Shown: one piece after another, positions 10,161 to 60,511 of the stretch | How positions within the stretch are numbered: the first letter of the stretch is position 1 | Layout of the letters: each line of letters starts with the position of its first letter | Origin: Mustelus asterias | Taxonomy: Eukaryota | DNA: 64,000 nt | Assembly: GCF_964213995.1 (NCBI RefSeq) | Contig: NW_027590141.1 | Location: 1,178,001 to 1,242,000, forward strand | Reading direction: 5' to 3' | Notes under the pieces: generated by a model | Database searches by the model: none | What the model was told of the DNA's origin: nothing | The model's input: the letters and a program-made list of their open reading frames with translations, nothing else | Program-made: the position numbers and the translations under genes

Positions 10161-10545
10161 GCTGTCCTTGGCGCTTGTTTGTCCCGGAGAAGCGGAGTCA
10201 GCGTTAGGCGGTGGCTGGGAGGATTTGGAAACCCTTCAGAATCATTGTCAGCTCCCTGGTTTCTCCCTCCCTCCCTCCCTCCCGGGAACAGGCCCAGGTT
10301 AACGGCCCCATCCTGGCTCAGCCACTGGAGGATGGTTCACATCAGAGGATGGGGGAGGGGGACAATAAATAAGAGGTTACACTTTGGCCTCAAATCAATG
10401 AGGACTCTGATCTCTGGGAAGGAAGGAAACCCTGGGAGGTGGGCGGGGAGGATTCACAAACACCCGCTGGAGGCCCCAACACCCCCAATAAGACCCATTG
10501 GTTTTACTGTCATTCTGCAGACAGCAGCTGGAGATTTGAACCCAG

Positions 10546-10835
10546 TAAGAAGTCTCACAACACCAGGTTAAAGTCCAACAGGTTTATTTGGTAGCAAAAG
10601 CCACTCGCTTTCGGAACACTGCTCCTTCATCAGGTGAGTAGGACTTGTGTTCATAAACGGGGCATATATATTGACACAAACTCAATTTACAAGATAATGG
10701 TTGGAATGCGAGTCTTTACAGGTAATCAATTCTTAAAGGTACAGACAATGTGAGTGGAGGGAGAGTTAAGCACAGGTTAAAGAGATGTGTATTGTCTCCA
10801 GCCAGGGCAGTTAGTGAGATTTCCACATCAAGAAC
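10546..10835 (-). mobile_element. Penelope-like 3' end with a 9-bp TSD and a variant hammerhead
   Basis: TSD tgaacccag at 10537-10545 and 10836-10844; minus strand 10601-10637 reads cac CTGATGA a ggagc agt gttcc GAAA gc GA gtg (U16.1 changed to G). Confidence 0.85.
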
Positions 10836-11322
10836 TGAACCCAGACAGAGGAGAGGGAGGGAGAAAATGGAGTGGAGGAAAGAAATGGTGGAGATGTTGA
10901 GATGGGTTTGGATTTCAGCCCAGGGGAGGAGGGAGAGTGTGTGGGACAGGGATTTATAGATTTGGGGAACAAGAGAGGAAAATATGTTCCAGAGAAATTT
11001 CAGAATTTCTATCCTGGACTGACAGTGATGGTACCCTGTATTTGTAAACTGTTTTTGCAGAGTATTATGAAGGAAGATTTACAGATATGAAACTCAAACC
11101 AAACTTCACATCAAGATCTGTTTCAGTGATTTGATTAATCAGAAACTGAATATCGTCAGCCTTTGTCTACAGAAGGAGAAATGTTTATTCTGTCTGCGGG
11201 CAAAGATTTCAAACATCAGTGTGACTGAAAAAGCACCGAGACACACACACACCTGTGAGTTTCCAATGTGCTGAATGTGGAAAGTGGTTTAACAAGTCTG
11301 AAAAATAATCACATCATTCTCA

Positions 11323-12549
11323 GTGAGTCGTGACCCGACACATATTCTGTGTAAACGAGGCTTCAACTCATCATCCAACCTGGAGTCACATGAGGACACC
11401 CGCAGCACAGAGAAACCATTAAAATGTGGGGACTGTGGGAGGGGATTCAATTACCCGTCCGAATTGGATATTCATCGTCGCATTCACACTGGAGAGAGGC
11501 CGTTCACCTGCTCTGAGTGTGGGAAAGGATTTGCTTACTCATCCAGCCTCTATACACACCGGCGTGTTCACACTGGTGAGAGGCCATTCACCTGCCTCGA
11601 ATGTGGGAGGGGATGTCATGCTATATCAAGCCTCCTGATTCACCGGCAAGTTCACTCCGATCAGAGACTGTTTCAGTGTTCTGAATGTGAGAAAAGCTTT
11701 AAAAGCACAAAGGACCTCCTGAGACACCAGCGCACTCACATGGCGGTGAGACCGTTCACCTGCTCAGTGTGTGGGAAGGGATTCACTCAGTCATCCCACC
11801 TTCTGACACACCAACTTGTTCACACTGATCAGAGACCATTTCAATGTTCTGACTGTGAGAAGAGATTTAAAAGTAAAAATGATTTACAAGTCCATCAGCG
11901 CACTCACACTGGGGAGAAGCCATTCACCTGCTCCGTGTGTGAGAGGAGATTCGGACGTTTATCCCAGCTGCAAACACACCAGCGAGTTCACTCTGATAAG
12001 AGACCATTTCAGTGTTCTGACTGTGAGAAGAGCTTTAAAAGTAAACAGGATTTGGTGACACACCAGCGAGTTCACACTGGGGAGAAACCGTTCACCTGCT
12101 CGGTGTGTGAGATGGGATTCACCCATTCATCCCACTGTCTGAGACACCAGCGAGTTCACACCGGGGAGAAACCATTCATTTGCTGTGTGTGTGGGAAGGG
12201 ATTCACTGATTCAGCCCACCTCCTGATACACGAGCGAATTCACACTGGGGAGAAACCCTTCGCTTGCTCCACATGTGGGAAACGATTCACTCAGCCACCC
12301 CAGCTCATTGCACATCAACTGGTCCACACTGATCAGAGACCTTTTAAATGTTCTGAGTGTGAGAAAAGTTTTAAAAGCAGTAAGGACCTGCTGAGACACC
12401 AGCAAATTCACACTGGAGAGGGATCATTCACCTGCTCCATGTGTGGGAAAAGGTTCACTCAGGCATCCCACCTGCTGAGACACCAGCAAGTTCACAAGTC
12501 ACTGCAGGGGTTGGATTCTGCTGTTGCTGCTAACCCCATGCAGGACTGA
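11323..12549 (+). CDS. ZNF-B: 13-finger C2H2 ORF; paralogous ATG lost and stop codon lost
   Basis: Open frame of 13 fingers; ACA at 11407 replaces the ATG of MEKP; TCA at 12499 replaces TGA; acceptor tttttgcag ends at 11060. Confidence 0.75.
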   Translation: MSRDPTHILCKRGFNSSSNLESHEDTRSTEKPLKCGDCGRGFNYPSELDIHRRIHTGERPFTCSECGKGFAYSSSLYTHRRVHTGERPFTCLECGRGCHAISSLLIHRQVHSDQRLFQCSECEKSFKSTKDLLRHQRTHMAVRPFTCSVCGKGFTQSSHLLTHQLVHTDQRPFQCSDCEKRFKSKNDLQVHQRTHTGEKPFTCSVCERRFGRLSQLQTHQRVHSDKRPFQCSDCEKSFKSKQDLVTHQRVHTGEKPFTCSVCEMGFTHSSHCLRHQRVHTGEKPFICCVCGKGFTDSAHLLIHERIHTGEKPFACSTCGKRFTQPPQLIAHQLVHTDQRPFKCSECEKSFKSSKDLLRHQQIHTGEGSFTCSMCGKRFTQASHLLRHQQVHKSLQGLDSAVAANPMQD

Positions 12550-12564
12550 ATCATGTTCATTCTG

Positions 12565-13870
12565 TTATTAAGGAGGCTGGGAGGGTGGCACACATGGATA
12601 ATCTCTGTACAATCAGGCAGAGTCAACATGGTTTTGTGCAAGGGAAATCACCTTTAATTGATTTATTGGATTTCTTTGAGGAAGTTACAAGCAATGTGGA
12701 TAAAGTGGAACCTGTGGATGTGGTGTATTTAGATTTCCAGCAGGCATTTGACACATCAAAGTTTACCACACTAAATAAGAATTCATAGCATAAGGCATAT
12801 TAGCATCCCATCCACATCGCTTCTTTATATTAGCATGGATAGAGGATTGATTAGCTAATGGGAAACAGAGAGGAGGGAGAAAGGAGTAATTTTTGGGATG
12901 GCAAGATGTCGCTTGTGGAGTGCCACAGGGATCAGTGCTGGGGCCTCAACTATTTACAAACTATTTTCATGATGTGGATGACAGGATCAAAATTTGCTGA
13001 CACAAAGGTAGGTAGAAAAATGAGATGTGAATGACCATAACAAGCCTGCAAAGCGACATAGTGAGTGAGTGGGTAAAAGGTTGGCAGCTGGAACAAGATT
13101 TTTGGATAATGTGAACTTGTCCATTTGGACAGGAAGGATGGAAAAGCAGTTGATTATTTAAAGAGAGCGATTGCAGGTACAGAGGGATCTGGGTGTCCTG
13201 GTACTGTAATCAGGAAACATTAGTGTGTGGACACAGCAAATGATTAGAAAGGTAAATGAATTGTTGTTTATTGCAGGGATGTTTTGCTGCATTTGTTCAG
13301 GGTATTGGTGAGACCACATCTAGAGCACGGTGTACAGTTTTGGTCTCCTTACGTAAGAGAGGACTTGTGTGAGAAGTAGTTCAGAGAAGGTTTACTTGAC
13401 TGATTCCTGGGATGAGGGAGTTATCATACAAGGAAAAGTTGGACATGTTCGGCCTGTATCTATTGGTGTTTAGAAGAATGAGAGAGGATCTGATTGAAAC
13501 ATATAAAATTCAGAGGGGACTTGACAGATGTTGATTGTAGAGAGAGGAGAACTAGAGGCACAGTTTAAAAATAAGGGGTCTCCCATTTAATGAGGAGAAG
13601 AAACTTTTTCTCTCAGAGGGTTGTTACAGTGTGGAATTCTCTTCCACAGAGAGTGGTGGAGGCTGGCTCACTGAATATTCTGAAGTCTGAATTTAATAGA
13701 TTCTTGATTGACAAGAGAGTCAAAGGGTATGAGGGGTAAGAAGGAAAGTGGAGTTCAGACCACAATCAGATCAGCCAGGATCCTATTGAACATGATTGAA
13801 CACTATTGAATAGTGGTGCAGGATCGAGGGGCCGAATGGCCTTCTCCTGGTCCTAATTCACATGTTCACA
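12565..13870 (+). mobile_element. Old degenerate CR1
   Basis: SQHGFVQGKS..VDVVYLDFQQAFD, gtgccacagggatcagtgctggggcc, CR1 3' tail. Confidence 0.85.
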
Positions 13871-14649
13871 TTATGAGAGTTGGAGTTTGTTTCTACTGAC
13901 TTTCATTTCCCATAAATCTGAGCTGCAGCTTAATCTACAGAATAGAATCAAATAAATCTTGATGATAAACTAATTGATCAGCCAGAGTCTAACTGAATGA
14001 CAGAGCAGACTGGAAGAGCTGAACAACCTACTCCAGTTCCTGTGTAGTTTCTCCCCATGATTCTCCCACTCTCTAACTCTGCTCCAGTGCTGGTTTCTGA
14101 TGAAGTCTCTTCTCCCCAGGTCTCCCATCACTTTCCATTCATCAGTTGGTGTCTGAGTCCAAGTTTACCAGGAACAGGAGGAGGTCATTTATCCCCCTCG
14201 AGCCTGTTCTGTCATTCACTGAGGTCAGGACTGATCTGAGACCTAACTCCATTTACCCAGATATTGTTTTAATCTTGACTTCCCCGGTCTGTTACAATGT
14301 GATTTAAAAATAACTTTCATTTCCATCAGACCGTTAATGTAGGAGAGTGTCCCAAAGTGAATCTCAGAAACATTAACTGACACTGAGTCAAAGAAGGGGA
14401 TGTTAGGAGGGCTGACTAAAGACTTGGTGCAGTGTAAAGGGTTCATGTTAAATTTGTAAATATTCTACACAGTGATGTATGATCAGATGACAAGAGCATG
14501 CTGAGAGTTGGTTCTCTGTGAAGCCTCATGCTGATCTTGTATTGTACATAGTTCGAAGAATGTGTAATTAAAGGTTACGTTTATCAGCAGCCTTGCCTCC
14601 AACAGTCTCGAGATTCTGACCAATTTCCTTCTTCACTTGATCTAAACCC

Positions 14650-15868
14650 ACAAGGCTGTGTTCTCAGCCCCCTTCTATACTCCTTATACACCTATGACTG
14701 TGTGGCCAAATTCCCCTCCAACTTGATTTTCAAGTTTGCTGATGACACCATAGTGGGTCGAGTCTCAAACAATGACGAGACAGAGTACAGGAACGAGATA
14801 GAGAATCTGGTGAACTGGTGCGGCAACAATAATCTCTCCCTCAATGTCAACAAAATGAAGGAGATTGTCATCAATTTCAGGAAGCATAGAGGAGAACATG
14901 CCCCTGTCTACATCAATGGAGATGAAGTAGAAAGGGTCGAGAGCTTCAAGTGTCCAGATCACCAACAACCTGGCCTGGTACCCCCATGCTGACACTATAG
15001 AACAAAGAACAAAGAAAATTATAGCGCACGAACAGGCCCTTTGGCCCTTCAAGCCTGCACCGACCATTCTGCCCGACTTAACTAAAACCCTCTACCCTTC
15101 CGGGGACCATATCCCTCTATTCCCATCCTATTCATGTACTTGCCAAGATGCCCCTTAGAAGTCACTACCGTATCCGCTTCCACTACCTCCCCAGGCAACG
15201 TGTTCCAGGCACCCACTACTCTGTGTAAAAAAATCTGTCTTGTACATCTCCTTTAAGCCTTGCCCCTCACACCTTAAACCTATGGCCCCGAGTAATTGAC
15301 TTAGTTAAGGAAGCCCACCAATTCCTCTACTTTCTTAGAAGACTAAGGAAATTTGGGATGTCAGCTACGACTCTCACCACCTTTTACAGATGCACCACAG
15401 AAAGCATTCTTTCTGGTTGTATCACAGCTTGGTATGGCTCCTGCTCTAACCAAGACCGCAAGGAACTGCAAAAGGTCATGAAATCCATCACGCAAACCAG
15501 TCTCCCATCCATTGACTCTGACTACACTTCCCGCTGTCTCGGCAAAGCAGCCAGCATAATTAAGGACCCCCCGCACCCCGGACATTCTCTCTTTCACCTT
15601 CTTACGTCGGGAAAGAGATACAAAAGTTTGAGATCACATACCAACCGATTCGAGAACAACTTCTTTCCTGCTGCTGTCAGACTTTTGAATGGACTTCCCT
15701 TGCATTAAGTTGATCTTTCTCCACACCTTAGCTATGACTGTAACACTACATTCTGCACTCTCTCGTTTCCTTCCCTATGAACAGTATGCTTTGTCTGTAT
15801 AGCGCGCAAGAAACAATACGTTTCACTATGTTAATACATGGGATGATAATAAATCAAATCAAATCAAA
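14650..15868 (+). mobile_element. Rex1/Babar-like LINE 3' part with a nested CR1 tail (about 15000-15300, minus)
   Basis: PQGCVLSPLLYSLYT..KFADDT..NLSLNVNKMKEIVINFRK; FYRCTTESILSGCITAWYG..NNFFPAAVRLLN; (aaatc)n tail. Confidence 0.85.
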
Positions 15869-16167
15869 CCTGCCATAATGGTTTTCACCTCTATCAGATC
15901 TCCCCTCCACCTCCTTCATTCCAAGTAGAACAAATTCAGCTTCTCGAACCTGAGCTTGGAGTTAAAATTCCTCATTGCTGGAACCATTCTGGTAAGTCTC
16001 CTCTGCACCTTCTCAAGGACCATCCCATCCTTCCTGAAGTGTGCTGACTGGATATGAACACAATACTCACATTGTGGTTTAAACACTGCTTTATAAAGCT
16101 TCAGCGTAACAACCTGCTTTTAACAGAATGGCCCAATTGAAAACCAATGTATTATCTCAATGTGCAA

Positions 16168-16485
16168 TCATAGAATCCTACAGTGCAGAAGGAGGCCATC
16201 AAGTTTCCCACAATCTGACCACAATCCCACTCAGGCCCTCTCCCCATAACCCCATGCATTTACAATAGTTAGTCCCCCTGACACTAAGGGGTAATTTAGC
16301 ATGGCCAATCCATGTAATCCGCACACCTTTGGACTGTGGGAGGAAACCGGAGCACCCGGAGGAAATGCACGCAGACACGGGGAGATGTGCAAACTCCACA
16401 CAGACAGTAACCCAAGCCGGGAATTGAACCCGGGTCCCTGGTGCTGTGAGGCAGCAGTGGTAACAACTGTGCCACCATGCTGGCC
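16168..16485 (-). mobile_element. HE1-like tRNA-derived V-SINE
   Basis: Head ggcacagttgtta..gggttcaattcc (A and B boxes), V-domain ..ccgggtgctccggtttcctcccacagtccaaag, CR1-like tail. Confidence 0.88.
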
Positions 16486-17659
16486 CAATCAGTTGTAACT
16501 TGCTTATTTCTTTTATATTAAGTGTAGATGGGTTGCGGTGGGACCCTGTGTGGAGACTGTCTCATGGTGGTAACATGGAACATCGAGGGTGATAGAAGAA
16601 CCCAGACCGAGGATATCTGAAGAACTGCACTGAACTGCATTGTGGGTTCAAAATGGAGTGCATGCTGGTCATTGTAGTCAAGTCGCAGCCTTGCCGGAAT
16701 TAGCAATGTCTGCAAAATGAGTTAAATTGTGCAGGAGAACTGGCCTCAAACTGTGAGAATGATGTGTTGGTTTGAGCTAATAAAGATGTCTGTAGCAGCT
16801 TGGGGATTGAAACAGTGTCAGAGGTAACACAGTGGAGTCAGGCTGACTCTATTCCTTCAAGCATAACCGTGGAATAGGCCCAGGACATAAGAACAAAGGA
16901 GAAGGCAATGCTGTCATTGAAATTCAATAGCCTAAAAACAGATATTACCTTATTTTTTATTCATTTACAGAGGCCAAAGCCCACAGCCTTTCCTGAATAA
17001 TAAAACGTGGCGTCACCGGCTAGGCCAGCATTTATTGCCCATCTCTAATTGGCCTAGGGAAGCTGTTGGTGAGCTGCCTTCTAGAACTGCTGCAATCCCT
17101 GTGGTGTAGGTACACCATAGTGCTGTTAGGGAGGGAGTTCCAGGATTCTGACCCAGTGACAGCGAAGGAACAGCGATATATTTCAAAGTCAAGATGGTGA
17201 GTGTTACAATCCCAGTTGATGTTATAGCTGGACAGGAAGATCCCAGAATGGAACCCTGGCTCAAAAGACCATAACTTTTATTTTCTTTGAAAACATAGAG
17301 GAACAGAGTCACAGGACTGCCAATTAGATTTTAACAATAAAATATTTATTAAATACGAAGAGTTTGATCATAAGACAAGACTTCTTCACTCCCACTTACC
17401 TTCACAAATGTACACAGATTTCAAGGATAACACAGGTAGAAAATTTCTTATGCTATAATGTTCTCAGTAAACACACAGTCCCTTTAAACCCACAGGTTGA
17501 CTGTAACCAGACAACCCCTTCTGAAACTAAGTGGCAGATGCAACTCAATTGATCCTCTGTGGATTTCACCTCAAATTTCCCCTGAAATTATTGTCACTCG
17601 AGTGTTTCCAAACTCCGCTCTCAAAAAGGTACACTTTACAATCTTCTTCCAAACCAATG

Positions 17660-18200
17660 GATGATGTCACCCAGTGGCAGCATGGGAAATGGGAGGGGCC
17701 AAGGAAAGATCCTTGGGAGACACAAAGTTCAAGGACTTTGGAGAGAAACCGGAGGTTGGAGTTGGGACAGTAGTTTGTAACGACAGTGCGGTTAAGGGTT
17801 TTTTCCTTAGGATGGATGATGAGGGTGAATTACAGGTGAGATGGAGAGTATCAGAAAAGACAGGTCCATTAACAGTACCAGGTAATGTGGGGAAGTTGGG
17901 TTATCAGTGGTTTAGTGGGAAAAGGGTAAAGGGAGTTGAAAGCAGGTCTCATGGACACGATGGGCAATGAGAGGGTTTGACAGGAGATAGGAGAGAAACT
18001 GCAAAAAGATGTGAGCTCAGAGCTTGGATACAGAGGAGCTTTACAGAAAGTCTGGCCCAGAGGCTAGTGGAAGCGAGGGAAGCAGCAGAGGCAGCTGGTC
18101 AGATTGTCTCAATCTTAGTGACAAAAAAACTCCATGAGCTCCTCACACTTTGTTGTTAGAGGTGAAGATGGAGGAGACAAGAGAAAGGGAGAGTCCTTCA
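17660..18200. mobile_element. Old L2-like remnant downstream of ZNF-C, shared with ZNF-E and ZNF-K
   Basis: atgtcacccagtggcagcatg..gaggggccaagga.agatcct also at 29581; gaagcagcagaggcagctg.tcagattgtctcaat also at about 30090. Confidence 0.6.
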
Positions 18201-18396
18201 AAAGGAACTAATTTGTGTTAGAGATATTAAGATGTTTTGAAAAAGCATGTTTAAATCAAAGACAACATATTTGATTTTTGTCCAGAATATTAGCCTCTAT
18301 AACTGACCTGAAGTTTATTAACATCAGCAGAAACAGACCCGAATGGACATAGCTCAGTTCTCAATCTGATTGACAAACACAATCCAATCTCTGTAG

Positions 18397-19434
18397 TTAA
18401 TTGTGAACTCGCTGGTGTCTCAGCAGGTTGGATGTCTGAGTAAATCCCATCCCACACTCAGAACACGTGAATGGTCTCTTCCCAGTGTGAACTCGCTGGT
18501 GTGTCAGCAGGTTGGATGACTGAGTGAATCTCTTCCCACAATCATTGCAGATGAACAGCCTCTCCCCTGTGTGAACTCGCTGGTGTCTGAGCAGTGCTGA
18601 TGATTGAGTGAATCTCTTCCCACACCTAGAGCAGGTGAACGGTCTCTCTCCAGTGTGAACTCGCTGGTGTCTCAGCAGAATGTATGACTGAGTGAATCCC
18701 TTCCCACACTGAGAGCATGTGAACGGTCTATCTCCCGTGTGAGTGCGCTGGTGAACGGTGAGATGAGATGATCGCTTGAACCCAGTTCCGCAGTGAGAGC
18801 ACCTGAACGGTCTCTCGTCAGTGTGAACTTGTTGATGGTACATCAGTTTCTGAGAGGTTTTATAACACTTCCCACAGTCCAGACATTTAAATGGTCTCTC
18901 GTCAGTGTGATTTCTTTGGTGTGTCGTCAGGTTGGATAAATTAATAAATCCTTTCCCACACTCAGAGCAGGTGAACGGTCTCTGCCTAGTGTGAACTCGC
19001 TGGTGTGTCAGCAGGGTGGATTGGTGAGTGAATCCCTGCCCACAGTCAGAGCAGGTGAAAGGCCTCTCCCCAGTGTGAATTCGCTGGTGTGTCAGCAGTG
19101 TGGATGATTGAGTGAATCCCATCCCACACATAGAGCAGGTGAATGGCCTCTGCCCAGTGTGTGTGCGCTGGTGTGTCAGCAGGGTGGATGACTTTGTGAA
19201 TCCTTTCCCGCAGTCAGAGCAGGTGAACGGCCTCTCCCCGGTGTGACTGCGCTGATGAGTTTCCAGCTGGGATGGGTAATTGAATCCCTTCCCACATTCC
19301 TCACATTTCCACGGCTTCTCCCCATCATGACTGCATTTATGTTTTGACAGGCCAGATGATCGATTGAATCCTTGTCCACACACAGAACACAAGTATGATT
19401 TATTTCCACTGTGAACGGTGCTTTTTCCTTCCAT
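18397..19434 (-). CDS. ZNF-C: 12-finger C2H2 protein (MEGKS-type start)
   Basis: Intact ORF from aacATGGAAGGA; acceptor ttcacag near 19541. Confidence 0.9.
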
Positions 19435-19759
19435 GTTCAAAATATGACAATGTTCAGGTTACGATAAATTGGTCGACTTTATCAGCCCCTGATGTGATGT
19501 TTGGTTTGTTTCCCAATTGCAAATCGTCCTCTTCTAAACCCTGTGAAATTGATTTGAAATAGAAAAAAAGGAGTGAGAAAGAACCTACAAAAACACAAAG
19601 GCAGGTTGTGAAATTGAGCTGAATGAATCTGGTAATATGTGGGGCCAGCACGAGGAAAAAGTGACCATGAAACATGCTTGATTCAATTGATGCACTCATG
19701 TGCTTCAGGGAAGGAAACTTGCCAACTGGTCTGGACTCTGCACTGAATCTCCAACAAAG

Positions 19760-19980
19760 CTTCCCACCCAAGTCCTATGCCCATAACCCCACATATTTAT
19801 CATGTTACTTCCCCTAATATCTTGGGGCACTAAGAGGCAATTTAGCATGGCAATCCAGCTAACCTGCACATCATTGGACTGAGAGGAAACCGGAGCACCT
19901 GGATGAAAACCCACGCAGACAAGAGGGGACAGAGTCACACATGGCTGGAGCTGTGAGACAGCAGTGCTAACAACTTGCCA
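19760..19980 (-). mobile_element. Degenerate HE1-like SINE
   Basis: Reverse complement of the V-domain and head, with a deletion. Confidence 0.75.
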
Positions 19981-20069
19981 CCCCTTTTCAAAGAACTGCA
20001 ACAATTTTGAGGAATATCTAGGAATATTATATTTTGTTAAAGAGACTGTATGATACAAATGATTATATC

Positions 20070-20660
20070 GTTGCTCTGCCTCATCAGTAAGAAATTGGAA
20101 GTGAAAGAGCGAAGCAGTTTGATGGACAAGTTGTTCACATTCTGTCACTCGGGCGAATTTCAAAATCATTGCCCCTCATAAAGAGGGCGGCTGCGCATGC
20201 GCTTCTAATAGAGGGCTATTGCTCCTAATAAAGATGGCAACCGCGCATGCGCCATATTGGTAGTGCCCGGATAAAAATGGCGGCAGTTAACCCGGGTCTG
20301 TCGCGGGAAGAAAGCAGCGGCCTTGCTCTGTGCAAACGGCCGGGACCATCTTCGGATAGCGGTCGGTTTTTTTTGCAGAGGTTTGTTGTTCATGATTACG
20401 AAGCCTCTCTCATCCCTCCGCCTGATTCATCGCTGCCTCCGCCCGCCATTCCCACTTTTTCTGATTGTGGATCCGAGAAATCCTCTCTCCATCGCCATTA
20501 ATCACACTGCGCATGCTTCACTCAGCCCCGCCCCTCATTCAGTCTGGTTGGAGGACCAGCCGCTGCCGCTCGCTCCTCCAGCCCCGCCCCTTCCTGCTAT
20601 TGGACCGGAGCTGCCGTCAATCAGTCCCCGGGCATTGTGAGGTGTCAGGTGAGAGGTCAG
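20070..20660. promoter_or_regulatory. Promoter P2 between ZNF-C (-) and ZNF-D (+)
   Basis: NRF1 tgcgcatgcgc at about 20192, 20242 and 20508; YY1 aaaatggcggc at about 20274; core 20505-20640 closely matches P1. Confidence 0.8.
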
Positions 20661-20760
20661 TGTCGTCGGGGGGGGGGGGGGGGGTTACGACTATCACTGT
20701 CCGCCACTTCAAACTCCAACAAAGAGAGCAGGGGGACGCTGACCAAGTGGCAATGTCAGT

Positions 20761-21001
20761 GTAAGAGTTTTAACAACACCAGGTTAAAGTCCAACAGGTT
20801 TATTTGGTAGCAAACACCATTAGCTTTCGGAGCACTGCCCCTTCGTCAGATGGAGTGGAAATCTGCTCTCAAACAGGGCACAGAGCGCTCCGAAAGCTGT
20901 GGCTTTTGCTACCAAATAAACCTGTTGGACTTTAACCTGGTGTTGTGAGACTTCTTACTGTGTTCACCCCAGTCCAACGCCGGCATCTCCACATCATGAC
21001 T
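20761..21001. mobile_element. Penelope-like element end with inverted copy
   Basis: 20761-20832 is an inverted near-copy of about 20885-20960. Confidence 0.85.
20817..20853 (-). ncRNA. Minimal type I hammerhead ribozyme motif, intact core
   Basis: ccau CUGACGA a ggggc agu gcucc GAAA gc UA augg: stem I ccau/augg, 5-bp stem II, palindromic AGCU stem III. Confidence 0.75.
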
Positions 21002-22780: not shown

Positions 22781-22859
22781 CTTCAAATCAATTATATAAA
22801 CCAGGAATGAAGGACCTAGCAATGAGCCCTATGAAACCCCTTCTGGAAACAGCCTTTTG

Positions 22860-37779: not shown

Positions 37780-38360
37780 CTGCCGCCGCTCTGCCTCATC
37801 AATAAGACATTGGGACTCAGAGGATTGATGCAATTTGATGGACAAGTTGTCTCCATTCTGAACAATGGGAAACAAGCTCCTCCCACTCGACAACTTGCCC
37901 CCTACAAAGATGGCGGCCACGTTGCAGCCCTGTTCCACATTATCCCCGTTGCACATTGGCCCCAATAAAGATGGCGGCCGTTAACCCGGACCGATCACTC
38001 GGAGCTGGAGACCCACTCAGTGCAGCTGGAGGAACCTGGAAGCTCTTTTTCGAGGATTGCGGTTACACAACATGTTTAGGAAACATCTCCGCCCGGTAGC
38101 TGGATCCATCGCTCCCTCCCATCCACTATTTTGTCCTAGATATTGTGGATCATAACAATCACCTCGCCAACCGCCATTAACCACACTGCGCATGCTTCAC
38201 TCCCAGCCCGGCCCCGCCCCTCATTCACTCCCGGCCCCGCCCCTCATTCACTCCCATTGCTTGGAGGACCAGCCGCTCCCGCGCGGTCTTCCAGCCCCGC
38301 CCCGCCCCTCTCTCTCTATTGGTCCGAAGCTGCCGTCAATCAGCCAGACATTGTGACGAT
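37780..38360. promoter_or_regulatory. Promoter P3 (paralog of P2), probable promoter of ZNF-E
   Basis: 37790-37860 matches 20074-20143; two aagatggcggcc YY1 sites at about 37907 and 37968; core at 38183-38357. Confidence 0.75.
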
Positions 38361-38410
38361 TTCAGATGGTGAGAGTGGCCACAGACTCAGGCTGACTTGC
38401 TGATTATTGT

Positions 38411-38812
38411 TAAGAAGTCTCACAACACCAGGTTAAAGTCCAACAGGTTTATTTGGTAGCAAAAGCCACAAGCTTTCGGAACAGGCTGTTCCTTCATCAG
38501 GTGGGTGGGAGTTCTGATCACAAACAGGGCACAAAGACACAAACTCAATTTACATGAATAATAATTGGAATGCGAGTCTTTACAACTAATCAAGCCTGTA
38601 AGGTACAGACAATGTGAGTGGAGGGAGCATTAAGCACAGGTTAAAGAGATGTGTATTGTCTCCAGACAGGACAGCCAGTGAGATTTTGCACATCCAGGCA
38701 AGTTGTGGGGGTTACAGATAGTGTGACATGAACCCAATATCCTGGTTGAGGCCATCCTCATGTGTGCGGAACCTGGCTATCAGTCTCTGCTCAGCGACTC
38801 TGCACTGCCGTG
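38411..38812 (-). mobile_element. Penelope-like element 3' end including the C-terminus of the ORF
   Basis: Minus strand 38811 to 38712 encodes RQCRVAEQRLIARFRTHEDGLNQDIGFMSHYL*, which resembles the end of PLE GIY-YIG endonuclease domains; UTR matches 10546-10835. Confidence 0.85.
38466..38504 (-). ncRNA. Minimal type I hammerhead ribozyme motif, intact core
   Basis: ccac CUGAUGA a ggaacag c cuguucc GAAA gc UU gugg. Confidence 0.78.
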
Positions 38813-42322: not shown

Positions 42323-42323
42323 A

Positions 42324-43220
42324 TCAGTTGCTGCAAGTCCCCAATTTCCCCCAGAATGAGAAAAGAAATGGAAAGGGGGAGAAAAAAAAGTGTTTTACTC
42401 ACAGATGTTGGTCTCTTTTAAGGTCAAACCAAATAAACAAACAGGAGGAAGTTTCAGTCAGTCTGAAGCGCAATCTTCTTTCACACAAAGCCCGTCCTGT
42501 GATTGGCTGGAGGACCAGAGTCCTTCCGGTCCTCCAATTCTTCCCATTGGTCAACACCTCAGCGTGAAGGTCAGGGGGCGGGCTCTCCCCTGCACATGCG
42601 CAGTTTCCCCTCTCCCTCAGTGCCGGGTGCCTGGAAACCTTGGCTCGTGGAGGTGCCGGGGGAGGGGGCACAACGGGTGGGGGCGGGGCTCCCATGTCCG
42701 CGCGTCCGGGCCTGCGCACTGGGATCCATCCAAGGATGTTGGCGCGGAGCAGAGTGATTGCTGTTGGCTGATTGAGGCAGGGCTCCATTGTGCCGTCACA
42801 ATGACTCAGAGGGGCGTTCCCAGCACACAGTGTCCCATTGGCAGCAATATCACTGGTTACAGAAGCAGCACACTGCGGATTGGGCACCAGCTCAGCGCGG
42901 CTGGCAGTCAAAGCCCCGCCCACCCCCACGTGGGCTCGTTTCCGCCCCCTTATTGTCTACATGCGGCAGATTGACCAATGGCAATGCGTGGAGGACCGGA
43001 TCAGCCCTGGTCCTCCAGCCAGTCAGAGTCCGGGCCTTGTGTCAATGGCTGCACGAATGTTCCTCCATTGTTTGTCCAACAAATTGCTGCTCATCCTCCT
43101 CCTCTCTCTGAACAAAGATTGAGCTTCAGATAGATTCAAACTTCCTCCTGTGGCCAACATCTGTGAGTAAAACACCTTATTTTTTCATTCTGGGAAAAAT
43201 TGGGGACTTGCAGCAACTGA
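42324..43220. promoter_or_regulatory. Promoter P4: mirror-image (inverted-duplicated) promoter and first exons for ZNF-F (-) and ZNF-G (+)
   Basis: ccaacatctGTGAGTaaaaca at 43153-43173 is the reverse complement of 42391-42411; 42324-42359 mirrors 43185-43220; mirrored GGAGGACC modules and CCAAT boxes. Confidence 0.82.
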
Positions 43221-51530: not shown

Positions 51531-51569
51531 TGATGTTTTCTCTGTATTTTCAACAAATTCTGGTCTAGG

Positions 51570-51800
51570 ATCTGAGCATTCGGTGTCCAAGGGCACCGTT
51601 AACACCTTCTGTGTCTGCTGGGCACCGCAGGGAGACAGGGGTGCATCATTGACCCCTTTAATCACATTTGATTTGATGTTTTAAATTTCCTTTCCAGTTT
51701 GTCTTTTGTTTTGGGTGGTTGCCCTCCTTTTGGGAGATGCCCATTTTAATTTGTTCCCTCGTTAATTTGATTTAGTGTATTTGGTTGGCCAAAAAGATTG
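51570..51800 (+). mobile_element. Possible Tx1/L1-clade LINE 3' end
   Basis: EHSVSKGTVNTFCVCWAPQG..CIIDPFNHI followed by a T-rich UTR. Confidence 0.4.
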
Positions 51801-52445
51801 AATCTAAACATAAGTTTTTAGTCTCGCAGTTTGCATCTAGATTTTCAGGGCTGCATCCTCGACAAGAAGCAGTGAGCATGGAGCTGTCAATCAGCATGAA
51901 TTGTCACTCTCTGGGGAATTGGGAGGCTGAACATTGGGACAGCAGAGTGAAAACAGAGAGGGAATCTGTGGGATGGAGATTTACAGCTTTACTTAGAATG
52001 AGAGAGGAAAGAATGTTCCACAGAAACTAGAATTGCCTGTGCTGAATTTCTATTCCAACTGACAGTGATGACTTTTGTAAACTCCTTTTGCAGGACATTA
52101 GGAAGCAGAAAATTCAAAGCAGACGTCATGCCAAGACCAACCAGAATCCTTCACTTCACTCGGAGCTGAATATCATCGGCCTTTGACTCTCAAAGGAGAA
52201 ATGTTTGTCTGTTCAGTTTGCTTCAAAAGATTTGAAACACCAGTGTGATTGGAAAAGCACCAAGACCCGCACACACACCCGAGTGAGAGTGTTCCAGTGA
52301 ACTGACTGTGGAAGAGTTTAATGTGGTGACAGAGTCTGTTAAAACCTCGCACCATTCACAATGCGGAGAGATAGTACATGTGTTTTGTGTTGATGAGGTT
52401 TTAGCTGATCCTTGAACTTGGGAGAGGCACAAGGACACCTGCAGT

Positions 52446-52952
52446 GTGGAGAAACGGTGGAAATGTGGGGACTGTGGGAGGGGATTTTGTACACCCTCTG
52501 CACTGGAAACTCATCAACGCAGTCATGTCGGAGAGAGGCCATTCACCTGCTCAGACTGTGGGAAGGGATTTGCGCAGCTGTCCAACTTACTGAGACATCA
52601 GCGAGTTCACACTGGGGAGAGACCATTCTCCTGCTCTGACTGTGGGAAGGGATTCAGTGATTCATCCAACCTGCAGTCACACCAGCGAATTCACACTGGG
52701 GAGAGGCCGTTCACCTGCAATGAGTGTGGGAAGGGTTTCAGTCATTTATCTAATTTGCTGAGGCACCAGCGAGCTGACAGCAGGGAGAGAACTGTCACCT
52801 GCTCTCAGTGTGAGAAACGATTCCGTGATTCATACACTCTGCGCTTACACCAGCGAGTTCACACTGGGGAGAGGCCATTCATCTGCTCCGACTGTGGTAA
52901 AGGATTCACTCAGTTATCCAACCTGCTGAGACACCAGCAAATCCATAAGTGA
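52446..52952 (+). CDS. ZNF-H: 6-finger ORF with the start changed to GTG and a defective finger 4; possible pseudogene
   Basis: agtGTGGAGAAACGG in place of accATGGAGAAACCG; HQRADS lacks the last His; acceptor ttttgcag ends at 52093; no promoter module nearby. Confidence 0.65.
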
Positions 52953-53229
52953 TGACAGGAGTGGATTCTGCTGTTACTGCTGCTGTTAGTCGCATCCAGG
53001 ACTGAACCATGTTCATTCAGACAGTGGGTGAAGTGGGAGGGTCGGAGGGTTTCTCTCTGTTGGACTGGCCGGTCTCATGACTTTGCATCCAATGGGCTGA
53101 TGCACTTTGAGCCTGGGAGTGCACACTTCCACAAAATGATCCACAAAAACTAATGGAATGTTTTACCCTGGATAATAAATAGTGTTTTTCTACCACTACA
53201 GGTAGATCTAAAATAAATACATTTGTCTC

Positions 53230-55150
53230 TGTTCCATTGAGTCTACAGCACAGGGCCGGGCCAGTCAGCTCAATTGGTCTATGTCAGTATTTATGCTCCA
53301 CATGAGCCTCCACCCACCCCTCTTCATCTCCCCCCATCAGCATATCCTTCTATTCCTCTCTCCCTCATGTATGTATCTAGCTTCCCCTTCAATGTATTCA
53401 TGCTGTTCACCTCAACCACTCGCTGTGGTGGTGAGTTCCACATTCTCACCACTCGCTGGTAAAGAGGTTTCTCACTGAAATCCCTATTGGATTATTGAAC
53501 CCCTTCATAATCTTAAAGACTTCCATCAGGTCACCCTTCAGTTTTCTCTTTTCTCGAGAAAAGCAGCCCCAGTCTTTCCTGAGGGTTAAATCCTCTCAGT
53601 TCTGGGATTATTCTTGTGAATCTTTGTTGCTCCTTCTCCAGTGCCTCTATTACACTTTTCTAAACGGAGATTATGAATGTTGACAGTGCTCCCAGTGCAG
53701 TCTAACCCTGGTTCTGAACAAGTTGAACAGAACCTCCCTGCTTTTCAATTCTATCCCTCTAGAATGGAACCCTGTATATGGGCCATTGAAGAAAAGTTCT
53801 TTGAGAGCTGGAGAGTGGATTTATAAGAATGGCACCAGGGATGAGGGACTGGAGATCTTGAAATTTCTCTCCTTAGATCAGAGAGTCATTAGTGTAAGAA
53901 ATGAGGCCATTCACCTGCTGAATCCGTGCCAGCTCTGGAAAGCAAACCAGTCAGTCCCATTGTCCCAATATATCCCCGTAACCCTGGAAGTTTATTTCCC
54001 ACAACTTCATTCCCAAAATGTTTGTTTTCTCTCCTTCCATTCCCCTCAGGGGCAGAGTGTTCCAGGTCATTGCCACTCGCAGTGTAAAAATATTCTTCCT
54101 CACAGCCCCTTTACATTTCTTGACCAAAATCTTCAATCTGTGCCCCCTCCTCCTTGCACCATCGGCTAATAGGAACAGGTTTTCTTTGTTCACCTTGTCT
54201 AAACATAAACTTCTGCACCTCCATCAAATCACCCTGCAACCCCCTTTTCTCCAGAAAGAACAAGCTCACTTTCTCCAACCTAACCTTGTAGCTACAATAG
54301 AAACAAAATGCTTGGGTTCAGGGGAATGGCACCAAGCCATAATGCTCCTTTGGAGAGCTGGTGCAGATGCAATGGGCCAAATAGCCTCCTCCTCCGCCTT
54401 AATCATAGAATAGAAATCATAGAAACCCTACAGTGCAGAAGGAGGCCATTCGACCCATCGAGTCTGCACCGACCACAATCCCACCCAGGCCCTACCCCCA
54501 CATATTTACCCACTAATCTCTCTAACCTACGCATCTCAGGACTCTAAGGGGCAATTTTTAACCTGGCCAATCAACCTAACCCGCACATCTTTGGACTGTG
54601 GGAGGAAACCGGAGCACCCGGAGGAAACCCACGCAGACACGAGGAGAATGTGCAAACTCCACACAGACAGTGACCCGAGCCAGGAATCGAACCCAGGACC
54701 CTGGAGCTGTGAAGCAGCAGTGCTAACCACTGTGCTACCGTGCCGCCCTAGACAACGCCCTTAACAACTCTGCAATTCCTCAACCCCGGAACCATTCTGG
54801 TAAATCTCCTCTGCACCCTCTCAATGACCCTCACATCCTAAAGTGCAGTGAGCAAAACTGGACACAAAACTCTAGTTGTGGCCTCACCAGAGTTTTATAA
54901 ACATTCAGCATACTTTTGCCGCCTTTGTAATCAATATCTTTATATCTGAAGCCCAAGATCCCATTTGTTTTGCTGATTTTTCTCCTGACAGCTCTGCAAC
55001 CTTCAATGAGCTCTGCACATGAATCCCCAGCTCCCTCTGTCCCTGCTCATTCTTTAGAACTTGTCATTCAGTCTATATTGCCTCTCCCTGTCCCTTCTGC
55101 CAAATCACATCCGTCACACTTCTTGTTAAATTCTATCTGCCACTTCCAGA
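53230..55150 (-). mobile_element. Several degenerate CR1 fragments
   Basis: RRGHRLKI..NIFTLRVAMTWNTLP; repeated ctctgcaccctctc motifs. Confidence 0.7.
54405..54748 (-). mobile_element. Full-length HE1-like V-SINE
   Basis: gggcggcacggtagcacagtggttagc..gggttcgattcc, V-domain, (tctat)n tail. Confidence 0.93.
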
Positions 55151-55899
55151 AGAGATTTGTATTAAACTAAACATAGAGAGAAGAGGAGACGCTGTTTTCT
55201 TTAATGTCATCCACAATTGAAGACAAGCCTCTGCCTTTCAATGCATGAGGCTCAAAGAGCACAGACAGAGGTCATTCAGCCCATTGTGCTCCTGCCAGCT
55301 ATTGCAACTATCTAGTTTCATCATTCATATGTTTTGGAAAATAGGTCGGAGATTGGAATTCTTTTAAATGAAGAGACATGGAAACATTTGTTGACAAACT
55401 GGTAAACACAGCTCTGATGTAAATGTATCGGAAACAGGCCTGTGTTAATTAGAGTTAAGAAGCAGCCTTTGTTGATCCAACAAGTCAGAGCTGATGGTGA
55501 GGACACGTAAACAATGAATGACCCCTCATGACTTTTTCTTTGCCTCACAGGGAAGTTTGCAGGCAGCTTGGTCAATCAGCAGGAACTGTGGCACCAGGAG
55601 CTGTGAACCAGCTGTGAGACTAGAAGCCTAGAGGGTCATTAGGAACCAGGGGTGTTCCCAATGTTTAAATCCCTCAACAAGAAGGCAGTGAAACCCATGC
55701 TTAAACTGAGGAGTCCACAGTTTTGAGATCTCAATGGAAAGGTTGACTTTTTTTTTAGCCAAAAAACAATAGCAGCTCCCCTGTAAGATCTTGGAGCTTG
55801 GAGAATATCTGGAAAACTGAGGATAATTAAATTGAATTCTGGGAGCTTTGGCATATCTTCAGGATGGTCCCAGGAACAGAAGTGAATGAACCTTAAAGA

Positions 55900-56660
55900 T
55901 ATTAGCAGGACTTACTCAGTTAATGGTAGGGCGTTGGGGAGAGTTATAAAAAAGAGAGATCTAGGGGTACATGTTCATAGCTCCTTGAAAGTGGAGTCAC
56001 AGGTGGACAGAGTGGTGAAGAAGGCATTCAGCATGCTTGGTTTCATCGGTCAGAACATTGAATACAGGAGTTGGGACGTCTTGTTGAAGTTGTACAAGAC
56101 ATTGATAAGGCCACACTTGGAATAGGGTGACCAGAACTGTGTACATTATAGAAAGAACATTATTAAACTAGAAACAGTGCAGAAAAGATTTACTAGGATG
56201 CTACCAGGACTTGATGGATTGAGTTATAAGGAGAGGCTGGATAGACTGGGACTTTTTTCTCTGGAGTGTAGAAGGCTGAAAGGTGATCTTATGGAGGTCT
56301 ATAAAATAATGAGGGGCATAGATCAGCTAGATAGTCAATATCTTTTCCCAAAGGTCGGGGTGTCTAAAACTGGAGGGCATAGGTTTAAGGTGAGAGGGGA
56401 GAGATACAGAAGTTTCCAGAGGGGCAATTTTTCACACAGAGGGTGGTGAGTGTCTGGAACAAGCTGCCAGAGGTAGTAGTAGAGGCGGGAAACTTTGTCT
56501 TTTAAAAAGCATTTAGACAGTTACATGGGTAAGATGGGTATAGAGAGAGATGGGCTAAATGCGGGCAATTGGGACTAGCTTCGGAGTTTTAAAAAAAGAG
56601 GGCGGTTATGGACAAGTTGGGCCGAAGGGTCTGTTTCCATGCTGTAAACCTCTATGACTA
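55900..56660 (+). mobile_element. CR1 3' part
   Basis: ORFs 55886-56125 and 56177-56449. Confidence 0.9.
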
Positions 56661-56949
56661 TATTAAGTACAAGGGAACTCTGGTTGGTGGCAAGATTTAA
56701 AATGTAGAACTGGGTTCATACCATAAATCTTTATAAACTAAAGTGCTGGTTTTTAATATTGTTTTATAAATAAATTTTGGTCTTGTTTAAAAATGTGGAA
56801 TCTTGTAGCATAATTCTTTGTTAATGACTGGCTATTTGAATTTCTCAATCGTTAACAATCCAGACTGGTGTCATCACAACACACAGCAACATATTTCACA
56901 ATGAATCGAAGACAAAATATGATTTTCCTTATTTTGTACAAAGTGTTAC

Positions 56950-58260
56950 ATGACAAACAGCCTCTTCTCGGATCCCCACTTAATTTCTCAATTTAAGCAC
57001 TTCTTTTCATGAAACAATCTGATAATTGATGATTAAAAATGGAACAAATTGTATCCCTACTAAAGCAGGAAGTCCATCGCCCGGCACAGAGGGTAATTAG
57101 GGATTTCTGCCATGGACCAATTAACAGGGATTATATCCTCCAACCATCTGAAGTGAATTCTTTCCCTGAATCGTCCAGGCCAGTGCAGTTATCAACTTGT
57201 AGTTTGGTTGATCAGCTGAGATTTTCTGCAGCATTTCATCGGTCACTGCGTGATTCCTTTCACAGCGTCCATCACTGAAAGGATTTTCAGCTGCCGTGTT
57301 CATGACCAGAATACTCATGTTTTCACACACGTCTCCAAACTCATCATTAACAAATTCCCCTTCGTTACCAGTCAGAAACTTAGCTGGTGCCCCAGGTCCA
57401 GTCCCTATCTATTTCTCCATGACTTTGGCTCGAATCAGCCTTTTGTCCTTGACATGGGGCGACACGGTAGCACAATGGTTAATACTGCTGATTCACAGTG
57501 CCAATGGCCTGGGTTCGATTCCCGGCTTGGGTCACTGTCTGTGTGGAGTTTGCACATTCTCCCTGTGTCTGCGTGGGTTTCCTCCGGGTGCTCTGTTTTA
57601 CTCCCACATTCTTAAAGACATGTTGGTTAGGTGCGGTAACCCGAACAGGTGCCAGACTGTGGCAACTGGGGGACTTTCACAGTAACTTCATTGCAGTGTT
57701 AATGTAAGCCTTACTTGTGACTAATAAATAAACTTTAAAACTTTAAGCGTATTATTGGAGAAAGACTAAGTCGAGTTACCATGTCTTTAAGGTTCTGAAT
57801 AAAAATATTTCTTGTCTTTGTCTTGTACCTTTCGACCCACGGTAACTTCCTCATGAGCTAAAGGAAAGATGTAATGGGAGCCTCCGATACTTTTCACACA
57901 TTCCACACTTTGCGCTACTCTGTCCAAGAGCCTCATGTACTCTTCGTCATCACCCTGCTTCTTTTAGCAGGATTTTTAATCTTTATTAAAAATGGGTGAG
58001 CAGTTGCTTGTGCAGTTTTAAGACAATTTGCATTTTTTTTTTCTGGTTCTTTTCACCTGAAAAATTAACAACCCTTTCTAATTGGAGATAGAAATCAGTG
58101 GAACCTCTCAGACACTGAATTGTAGATTTTGCATCAGAGATCAATTAAGCATTGATGGAAAAGTTCATAATTTTATTGTGAACAAGTTCCTGTTGAGAGT
58201 TCTTGAATTATGTGTGAAGATCACAGATGGTGCATTTAAAAAGCGGCACTGCAGCCCCGA
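56950..58260 (-). mobile_element. Degenerate Copia-like integrase remnant, split by a SINE
   Basis: NTAAENPFSDGRCERNHAVTDEMLQKI..ALAWTIQGKNSLQMVGGYNP; zinc-binding region KCGMCEKYRR at about 57880-57910. Confidence 0.6.
57456..57746 (+). mobile_element. V-SINE variant with a non-CR1 tail
   Basis: tRNA head and V-domain, then cccgaacaggtgccag..aataaataaactttaaaactttaa. Confidence 0.85.
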
Positions 58261-58394
58261 AGGTCAATGACATCTCCAGAATATTAAACTCCAGACTGTT
58301 ATGTGGTTTGTTGATATCAACAGAAACAAACCAAATATTGTCAGACTATCAGTCCAGGAACAGCAACAATAACAGCGGAATCTAACCTCTGGAT

Positions 58395-59061
58395 TCACTT
58401 ATGAATGTGCTGGTGTGTCAGCAGGTGGGATGACCGTGTGAATGCCTTTCCACACTCAGAGCACATGAATGGCCTCTCCCCACTGTGAACTCGCTGATGT
58501 GCTTTGAGGTCAGATGACTGCCTTAACCTCTTTCCACAGGAAGTGCAGTTGAATAGTTTCTCCTCAGTGTGAACTCGCTGGTGTCTGAGAAGGTGGGATA
58601 ACTGAGTGAATCCCTTCCCACACACAGAGCAGATGAATGGCCTCTCCCCAGTGTGAATTTGCTGATGTTCATTGAGCTCAGATGACTGCCTGAACCTCTT
58701 TCCACAGGAAGTACAGCTTCTCCACAGTGTGAATTCTCTGATGTGTGCAAAGTCCCGAAGACTGAGTGAATCCCTTGCCACATAGAGAGCAGGTGTATGG
58801 TCTCTCCCCACTGTGAATCTGCTGGTGCCTCAGCAGGGTGGAAGTGCATTTAAACTTTGTTCCACATTGAGTGCAGCTGAATGGCCTGTCCTCAGTGTGG
58901 ATTCGCTGGTGTAAAATGAGTTTGGTTGTCTGAGTGAATAATTTTCTTCATACTGAGCAGGTGAACAGTCTCTCCCCAGTGTGGCTGCGTCAATGAATTT
59001 CCAGCTGGGATGGATAATTGAATCCCTTCCCACAGTCCCCACATTTCCACGTTTTCTCCAT
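58395..59061 (-). pseudogene. ZNF-I: frameshifted C2H2 pseudogene (about 8 fingers)
   Basis: ATG GAG AAA ACG TGG at 59061; fingers are spread over several frames; family 3' UTR follows. Confidence 0.85.
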
Positions 59062-59516
59062 GGTGCCAGTGTCCTTGTGTCTCTCTCTTGGTTTGATGAT
59101 CAGTTGAAGCCTCATTCACACACACGAGTACAGTTTCTCTTTGCTGTGAATGCTGTGGTGTTTTTTTCAGACTGTAACTGGTTAAAGCTTTCCATGGTCA
59201 GTTCACTGGAACACTCTCACAGGGATGTGTGTGTGTCTTAGCACTTTTCCAGTCACACTGATGTTCGAAATCTTTCCCCATGGGCAGAACAAACATTTCT
59301 CCTTCCACATTCAAGACCAATGATATTCAGGTCCTGATGAAGACTGACTGTCAGAACCAGCTGCTGAATGCTTTCTCCACAGTGAGAATTCCCTGGTGTG
59401 TGTGCAAAGTCCCGAGGACTGAGTGAATCCCTTGCCACATACGGAGTCGATGTATGGCCTCTCCCCACGTGAATCTGCTGGTGCCTCAGCAGGGTGGAAA
59501 CTCATTTAAACTTTGT

Positions 59517-59842
59517 GGGCAGCACTGTGGCACAGTGGTTAGCACTGCTGCCTCACAGCGCCAGGGACCGGGGTTCAATTCTCAGCTTGGGTCACTGTCT
59601 TTGTGGAGTTTGTACCCTGTGTCTGCGTGGGTTTCCTCCGGGTGCTCCGGTTTCCTCCCACAGTCCAAAGATATGCAGGTTAGGTGGATTGGCCATGCTA
59701 AATTATCCCTTGTTGTCAGGGGGATTAGGGAGGGTAAACACGTGGGGTTATGAGGATATGGCCTTGGGGAGGATTGTGGTTGGTGCAGACTCGATGGGCC
59801 GAATGGCCTCTTTCTGCACAGTCGGATTTTATGATTCTATTC
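59517..59842 (+). mobile_element. HE1-like V-SINE
   Basis: tggcacagtggttagc..ggttcaattc, V-domain, CR1-like tail. Confidence 0.9.
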
Positions 59843-59974
59843 TAACCTGATGTGATGTTTGCTCTGACTTTCCCGTCTGTAAATCCTCCCTTTCTCACTC
59901 CCTGTAAAAGGAGTTGAGGAAACTTTTCACTGGAAGGACAGGATGGAATTTCTGAAGAGGTCTTGCAGCTCAAC

Positions 59975-60240
59975 ACCCGCACTGCGCATGCTTCAGTTAC
60001 AGCCCCGCCCCCTCATTCACTCCGATTGGTTTGAGGACCAGCCGTTCACCCCCCTCTGTTTCTATTGGTCCGGAGCTGCCGTCAATCAGTCCCCGGGCAT
60101 TGTGAGGTGCCAGGTGAAAGGTCAGTCTCGAAGGGGCGGGGTTTACAGTGAACATTCTCCACTCACTTCTGCCACTTCCGGCTTCTCCCCACAAATCACC
60201 TCAAAGAGACCTGCTCCCTCCGAGCATGCGCCAGCCACAC
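59975..60240. promoter_or_regulatory. Promoter P5 (left YY1 part deleted) between ZNF-I (-) and ZNF-J (+)
   Basis: cgcactgcgcatgcttcag..ccccgccccctcattcactccgattgg..ctattggtccggagctgccgtcaatcagtccccgggcattgtga; ETS-like cacttccgg at about 60173. Confidence 0.75.
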
Positions 60241-60410
60241 GCACAACCCGCCGATGTAGAGCGCTTTCCGAGGCGCACGGGACTGTGGGTAATCCTGCTG
60301 CCATTAGAGACCCAGTATCAGATAATCTTTCTCTAAATCTGGAGAAGTGAAGGTGAGATTCTGTTCACATATGGATAGCATAATCAGAAGTATCAATGTA
60401 TTTCTCCTAC

Positions 60411-60511
60411 CATGATGTGGAGATGCCGGCGTTGGACTGGGGTAAACACAGTAAGAAGTTTAACAACACCAGGTTAAAGTCCAACAGGTTTATTTGGTAG
60501 CAAAAGCCACA
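60411..60511 (-). mobile_element. Penelope-like terminal fragment starting at the hammerhead cleavage position
   Basis: catgatgtggagatgccggcgttggactggggtaaacacagtaag..ggtagcaaaagccac(a), then unrelated sequence. Confidence 0.85.

Follow-up and report, generated by a model that had tools for sequence, protein, structure and literature searches.

The 64,000-nucleotide stretch of the Mustelus asterias genome analyzed here (hereafter the window; contig NW_027590141.1, positions 1178001–1242000, labelled C109, from a 3.68-Gb assembly) contains ten arrays of C2H2 zinc fingers (ZNF) on both strands and four CpG-rich cores that are copies of one sequence, and each core is followed on its right by a minus-sense end of one family of Penelope-like elements (PLE). 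The question raised by this locus is why four putative promoters should carry the same retroelement on the same side and in the same sense. A promoter role of the cores is suggested by their position between the arrays and by motifs that we take to be CCAAT-, GC- and NRF1-like. The first-pass annotation, which had placed the core ends and the element ends (10546, 20761, 38411 and 60411) correctly, proposed either insertion into open promoter chromatin with purging of the opposite orientation or retention of the inserts as terminators of minus-strand RNA. The explanation that we favor as probable is that an abundant PLE lands according to a sequence motif and that two sites beside the duplicated ZNF cores have been filled repeatedly, at about ten times the level expected from the motif, with accessibility likely playing a part. 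The features concerned are the following.

9981–10141, no strand assigned: core 1, promoter-like (putative function), flanked by ZNF arrays 7166–8258 (minus) and 11425–12433 (plus)
10532–10545, plus: left copy of the 14-bp target site duplication; when empty, the site reads as a perfect CTG-N16-CAG, and it is a hot spot of repeated insertion
10546–10830, minus: PLE insertion with tailless start and mutated hammerhead core
10831–10844, plus: right copy of the 14-bp target site duplication
20485–20644, no strand assigned: core 2, promoter-like
20761–20880, minus: tailless arm of a two-armed insertion, with intact minimal hammerhead
20884–21001, plus: tailed arm of the same insertion, with AATAAA in the plus strand
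38236–38356, no strand assigned: core 3, promoter-like
38392–38409, plus: hot-spot site, left part of a perfect CTG-N16-CAG
38411–38812, minus: PLE insertion comprising the pseudo-long terminal repeat (pLTR) with intact minimal hammerhead and the final ~100 nt of the open reading frame (ORF)
59975–60109, no strand assigned: core 4, promoter-like
60411–60512, minus: tailed arm that stops at the predicted hammerhead cut

Insertions of the element favor a palindromic target, (C)TG-N16-CA(G). Among the 37 targets rebuilt on the chromosome-scale contig C1, TG-N16-CA is present in 26, against 0.71 expected, and the longer CTG-N16-CAG in 12, against 0.06 expected, a 17-nt spacing occurring in 6; a second set, drawn from long copies on other large contigs, contains TG-N16-CA in 6 of 11 cases (0.23 expected). 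Target duplications measure 10–16 bp with a mode of 12–13, and the duplication noted for the 10546 copy was recovered, with a length of 14 bp, at 10532–10545 and 10831–10844. The ends of the element fall into two classes, tailed and tailless, which lie about 37 nt apart. On C1, 74 of 132 ends belong to two-armed insertions in which the arms lie head to head within a shared target duplication, and a tailed arm is always paired with a tailless one (37/37 on C1 and 11/11 among 25 loci of long copies on other large contigs, giving 47/47 resolved pairs after removal of one false C1 pair, L278). An overlap with the element of at least 1 nt, mostly 1–4 nt, is seen at 38 of the 42 tailed and 23 of the 30 tailless junctions without extra bases.

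This structure bears directly on orientation. Both 3' ends point outward, so that the end nearest to a core lying on its left reads minus-sense by construction; upstream of the cores, in the sample from contig C71 described below, the nearer ends are mostly plus-sense. The common orientation noted in the first-pass annotation holds for the nearest ends, all of which are minus, and fails as a property of the insertions: the 20761 insertion has a plus arm (20884–21001), the 10546 insertion keeps at its end the last 8 nt of a second arm, which is inverted and tailed (10823–10830), and the 60411 copy lacks an inverted arm and a right flank (~80 bp) that are present in its duplicate L091 on contig C157. 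An apparent strand bias of PLEs beside genes can in this way be an artefact of two-armed insertions.

Two of the four insertions occupy targets that have been used many times. The empty target of the 10546-type insertion is called site 1 and that of the 38411-type insertion site 3; both are perfect CTG-N16-CAG sequences, and a weight matrix built from 47 targets, repeat-borne sites included, ranks them with the best 0.07% and 0.18%, respectively, of background positions. Site 1 was found in 471 copies, and in the first 100 of these, counted by eye and then rechecked, 38 are filled and 62 empty, the filled copies representing 13 distinct insertions; the 10546 insertion itself is found at 9 of the 100. 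Site 3 has 55 exact copies, each of which was scored, three rows classed automatically as 'other' being assigned by eye; 24 are filled and 31 empty, with 19 structures, or 16 if copies with shared odd junctions (possible gene conversion) are merged; 16 in 55 against 5% corresponds to p 7e-9. A third hot spot is a 63-bp minisatellite located 0.5–2 kb to the right of the type-3 cores, each unit of which contains a perfect CTG-N16-CAG; 6 of the 34 units are filled among those listed (L183, L184, L336, L341, L345). As a comparison, a perfect site borne by a long interspersed nuclear element (LINE) is empty in 22,245 copies and has a tailed junction on its left half in 373, which corresponds to about 3–5% filled assuming that tailless junctions are equally common, and the average perfect motif site is filled at roughly 2.5–3.7% (rough totals). 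Motif and duplication thus account for the recurrence at sites 1 and 3, and they leave uncovered a heat that is about tenfold above the prediction from the motif alone.

That all of these copies go back to one ancestral, co-duplicated insertion, or that the coincidence is pure chance, we regard as barely credible. It is true that raw counts are inflated by duplication, as the 38 filled copies from 13 events at site 1 illustrate, and that the +44 copies on small contigs look like a single event. Against this stand the four insertions of the window, each with a junction and a site of its own, the empty paralogues and the many distinct insertions at one nucleotide, with the site-3 statistics given above, and a single ancestral insertion is ruled out for the hot sites. 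The argument of the first-pass annotation that the four insertions are independent, based on their differing junctions, is borne out: 10546, 38411 and 60411 each have paralogous sites without the insertion, and 20761 has an empty homologue, although a diverged one. The insertions near cores 2 and 4 are each single events. Among the 30 closest relatives of core 2, 5 have one shared insertion, that at 20761, common to five co-duplicated loci, and 25 have none within 1.5 kb; the corresponding numbers for core 4 are 2 and 28, and in the three next-closest, close paralogues, the 60411 site is empty. The 38411 insertion is likewise common to five co-duplicated loci. Once made, insertions have spread by gene duplication: the block holding cores 2–4 (20480–60410) is duplicated on contigs C157 and C91, and since C91 carries the core-2 and core-3 insertions and is empty at core 4, the 60411 insertion is the latest of the three.

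The association of core and element is less general than the window suggests. Core candidates number ~1,500–1,800 genome-wide at first look, and 613 as exact 27-mers. The promoter test was made on sampled loci, namely 60 unselected cores taken in genome order on C71, co-duplicates included, and a minus-sense end within 520 bp was found at 14 of the 60 (16 insertions in 15 loci by alignment), so that the pairing claimed by the first-pass annotation is not a general property of the cores. At this rate four of four has a probability of 0.003; since the 613 exact cores form about 150 groups of four, one such window is expected about once and is unsurprising. Enrichment beside the cores is nevertheless present. 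Independent events amount to 0.18 per kb within 1 kb of cores against 0.064 per kb beyond (22 vs. 29, p 3e-4), a gradient that rests on C71 and for which two rows, at +123 and +131, count as a single event; the density near cores also exceeds the genomic one, as the 29-nt end motif of the family occurs exactly 171,007 times, or once per 21.5 kb. The enrichment proposed in the first-pass annotation is supported; its main cause, a palindromic target motif within duplicated sequence beside the genes, had been missed.

As to what makes these hot spots so hot, it may be that sequence alone suffices, the two sites being near-ideal substrates by their motif, their A/T-rich middle and the pairing of their 3' ends with the RNA start sites, and promoter proximity being incidental; we think this rather unlikely. 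It would agree with the fact that 8 of the 9 independent events at 0–520 bp lie on the two sites, whereas a nearby site with a similar score, at a distance of 70 bp, counts 1 event and 18 empty copies, with the 8 of 9 positions at which the site-1 primer end matches the region of the tailless start, and with the common junction overlap. On the other hand, the LINE-borne site scores higher (14–16 bits, partly since it is in the training set) and is filled far less often, the third, ZNF-linked motif is itself filled to ~18%, and the left side of the cores, which has no such hot site, is enriched as well (10 events in 60 kb, p 0.013).

Several results also weigh against a contribution of accessibility, or against the favored explanation altogether. 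Once the two hot sites are left out, no excess remains on the right side of the cores (3 events in 60 kb, p 0.74), and that within ±2 kb becomes marginal (p 0.07); all 60 cores were sampled on a single contig, co-duplicates among them. Insertions on chromosome arms are not enriched near CpG-island-like DNA (9/171 vs. 10/198 windows, a weak test). The type-1 core itself contains two motif-like sites that have never been filled (empty in 37 and 35 copies), and the 20761 and 60411 sites fit the motif poorly, with a 17-nt spacing. The LINE site used for comparison may be of more recent origin than the ZNF sites, and, given the basis of the weight matrix, the excess could be due to sequence context at a finer scale. 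The open-chromatin part of the first-pass proposal stays plausible for the residual excess, and between accessibility near promoters and finer sequence context as the source of the excess we see the balance as about even.

Selection on orientation was considered next to these explanations. Insertion could be neutral in orientation and plus-sense copies purged for adding a ribozyme and a poly(A) signal to the plus-strand ZNF transcript. Type-1 cores do have a plus-strand gene on their right in 35 of the 37 cases with an array, and at site 1 six of the 13 structures are minus-only or carry a tip of ≤10 nt, no plus-only structure being recovered by the search, which was anchored on the left flank and undercounts plus-only copies because such copies can lose that flank. 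The other seven structures, however, carry a real plus-sense arm, whose hammerhead is intact in two of them, L240 is a plus-only copy, and genes are equally intact behind filled and empty copies of site 1 (12/25 vs. 10/19, after exclusion of 6 filled loci that have no array in the nearest 4.5 kb and of 2 empty loci where fewer than three fingers remain). A mild orientation skew at site 1 may still exist, although the count is biased by the need for the left flank; plus-sense arms with hammerhead and AATAAA at the same sites make purging as proposed in the first-pass annotation improbable. One site-1 insertion type (L351, L364, L371, L389, L396) has lost its right flank, and the four such loci tested have no plus-strand finger array within 4.5 kb; this insertion may have removed the gene.

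Even less probable, and in our view very much so, is that the inserts owe their retention to a hammerhead and an AATAAA by which minus-strand RNA entering the promoter would be cut or terminated. What lies to the right of type-3 cores is mostly the 3' side of a ZNF gene on the minus strand (5 of the 6 cores that have an array), and the AATAAA of the 38411 element (38448) is the sole AATAAA or ATTAAA on the minus strand between 38400 and 39330; that case is, however, one event in five duplicates, and the 38411 insertion adjoins the 3' side of a minus-strand ZNF array because its right flank has been lost. The intact core in 13 of 14 minus-sense arms at site 3, which would seem to speak for a function, is not above the background of ordinary arms (80/106, p 0.11), and site 1 keeps its hammerheads worse (1/6, p 0.004). 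Between 56 and 62% of the copies are empty (31/55 at site 3, 62/100 at site 1), and of the 13 site-3 structures with both flanks, ten are two-armed and hold both orientations, two are plus-only and one is minus-only. Single minimal hammerheads, moreover, gave no detectable cleavage in vitro in the accessible part of an earlier report (PMC4209133). A domesticated ribozyme/poly(A) terminator was rejected on these grounds, position and orientation not being fixed across paralogues and the core not better kept, and the terminator reading of the first-pass annotation falls with it.

The ORF of the copy L288 (3826–6501) encodes 892 residues and matches the Pfam family RVT_1 above its cut-off (E 4e-9). 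A GIY-YIG endonuclease is recognizable by eye in its C-terminus (VY...YIG, two cysteines between and two later histidines, i.e. CCHH), although Pfam reports no GIY-YIG match in the endonuclease fragment or the ORF, and a C-x4-C-x2-C linker motif between reverse transcriptase (RT) and endonuclease lies upstream of it; the pLTRs of L288 are in tandem arrangement. By these motifs the family is an endonuclease-positive PLE with RT and GIY-YIG domains, of Neptune/Nematis type, the two not being separated. Since several full-length copies (L287, L288, L289, L290) have open frames of 880–940 residues, the family is young and may be active. A strictly site-specific retroelement, comparable to R2, was rejected in view of the 171,007 dispersed ends and a motif of only ~8 bits. 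The minimal hammerheads at 38500 and 20849 (minus) fit the expected pattern and fold with stems I and II; the 10546 copy, in which the conserved U after GAAAGC is mutated, fails it, and 60411 keeps the post-cleavage part only, all as described in the first-pass annotation. Rfam finds no hammerhead in the window, and minimal hammerheads presumably lie outside its models. In 166 arms, 5' ends cluster 25–45 nt beyond the hammerhead cut and do not pile up at the cut itself, a class of a few percent being too small to be seen; in L091 (~1940–2140, minus) both arms stop at the predicted cut, as would be expected for a self-cleaved RNA template.

In the mechanism that we favor, a dimeric GIY-YIG endonuclease would nick one strand and, some 13 bp away, the other. 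Reverse transcription would be primed from either nick, using one of the two RNA start sites for each, and to the right of a core the end that faces the promoter would be minus-sense by construction. Germ-line accessibility of promoter flanks would supply the excess filling, and the inserts would be tolerated passengers rather than terminators.

Two further insertions of the family, and only two, are found in the window, as the first-pass annotation had it, both at a distance from the cores.

3016–4135, no strand assigned: two-armed insertion at a LINE-borne motif site, tailless arm 3016–3104 and tailed arm 4010–4135
4344–4485, minus: one-armed tailed insertion in a LINE

The former surrounds ~900 bp of LINE sequence that is 79% like the neighbouring LINE at 4377–5264 and was either captured or inserted later. 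Another promoter-like region of the window (~42450–43000) has no nearby element of this family. At 10134–10150, and after all type-1 cores, a motif-like site holds sequence that agrees with the start of the element tail in 14 of 15 letters, apart from one additional base; this may be what is left of an old, truncated insertion, or a chance match. Site-1 insertions of 303 bp with the same junction (L003, L228, L373, L394, L395) differ inside by a subfamily variant, and L308/L314/L316 and L342/L343 likewise combine identical junctions with different internal variants, which suggests gene conversion among element ends. On small contigs (C28–C67) about 20 near-identical core-bearing units (L123–L143) occur on separate contigs with the same insertions, the result of either a recent large amplification or assembly redundancy. 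To the left of core 1, a 28-bp unit with what we take to be a cAMP response element-like motif is repeated five times (9591–9729) and varies in copy number among paralogues. A near-perfect long inverted repeat at 8764–8891, with weak matches to microRNA families, is probably the remnant of a small transposon. Finally, contigs from four runs guessed to be RNA (with other organism labels) yielded no usable information on splicing or RNA ends; one of these contigs shows a foreign join at L029:2081 with a candidate acceptor 30 nt before it, a weak hint.

A stronger form of the favored explanation, which we put forward tentatively as a real possibility short of an expectation, is that the PLE reads two signals, a palindrome cut by a dimer and open promoter chromatin, with single nucleotides beside ZNF promoters serving as landing pads ~40% filled in hundreds of gene copies by dozens of events. 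If so, the 5' regions of ZNF genes would be a shared retroelement niche and a natural, replicated experiment on the insertion of a ribozyme and poly(A) signal against gene output. Target choice and cutting by PLEs in vivo are poorly known. The prediction for the protein in purified form is a pair of nicks inside TG-N16-CA, spaced by about 13 bp, with one RT start per strand, and the hundreds of near-identical ZNF 5' regions, filled or empty, offer a test bed for chromatin steering and for effects on expression. A literature search, in which most subscription papers and Repbase reports were not covered, found neither a palindromic PLE target nor PLE hot spots at ZNF promoters, and the accessible part of a preprint (bioRxiv 10.64898/2026.07.22.740005) yielded nothing on targets.

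As far as their accessible descriptions go, the endonuclease-positive PLEs Neptune and Nematis (PMC8557442, PMC3846280) share with the present family a single ORF with RT and C-terminal GIY-YIG, the CX2-5CxxC linker and CCHH residues, pLTRs in partial tandem, an adjacent inverted 5'-truncated copy, short target duplications and a tail of 30–40 nt on one end only. The same texts contain no spaced palindromic target or promoter-side hot spots, unlike what is seen here, and the absolute tailed/tailless pairing sets the present family apart from them; Naiad and Chlamys have microsatellite targets. The anole Poseidon element PAc is reported, in the available portion of its description (PMC11167929), to cut and extend both strands in vitro, with two RT start sites that define the tail, a predicted dimer and a hammerhead in the pLTR. 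It differs in preferring ATT in A/T-rich DNA rather than (C)TG-N16-CA(G) and, according to the same source, in starting without homology to the cut DNA, against the 1–4 nt overlap found here. By analogy, motif and junctions of the present family would fit a dimer that nicks both strands and primes twice, as PAc in vitro allows. The minimal type-I hammerheads of metazoan PLE pLTRs (PMC4209133) agree with the present ones, so far as that source was accessible, in the missing stable helix III, the palindromic 15.2-16.2 pairs, the extra base between A9 and G10.1 and the stem covariation between subfamilies, with no notable difference. The sequence data give no sign of an action of the present hammerheads on host RNA. 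The Drosophila P element prefers promoters, a parallel to the likely bias of the present family toward promoter-flanking DNA. In its case too, a loose palindromic motif surrounds the duplication (PMC2577343), but it is a DNA transposon with a DDE transposase, whereas the present family is a retroelement. The element is of a known class, and its site-level hot spots are real and strong.

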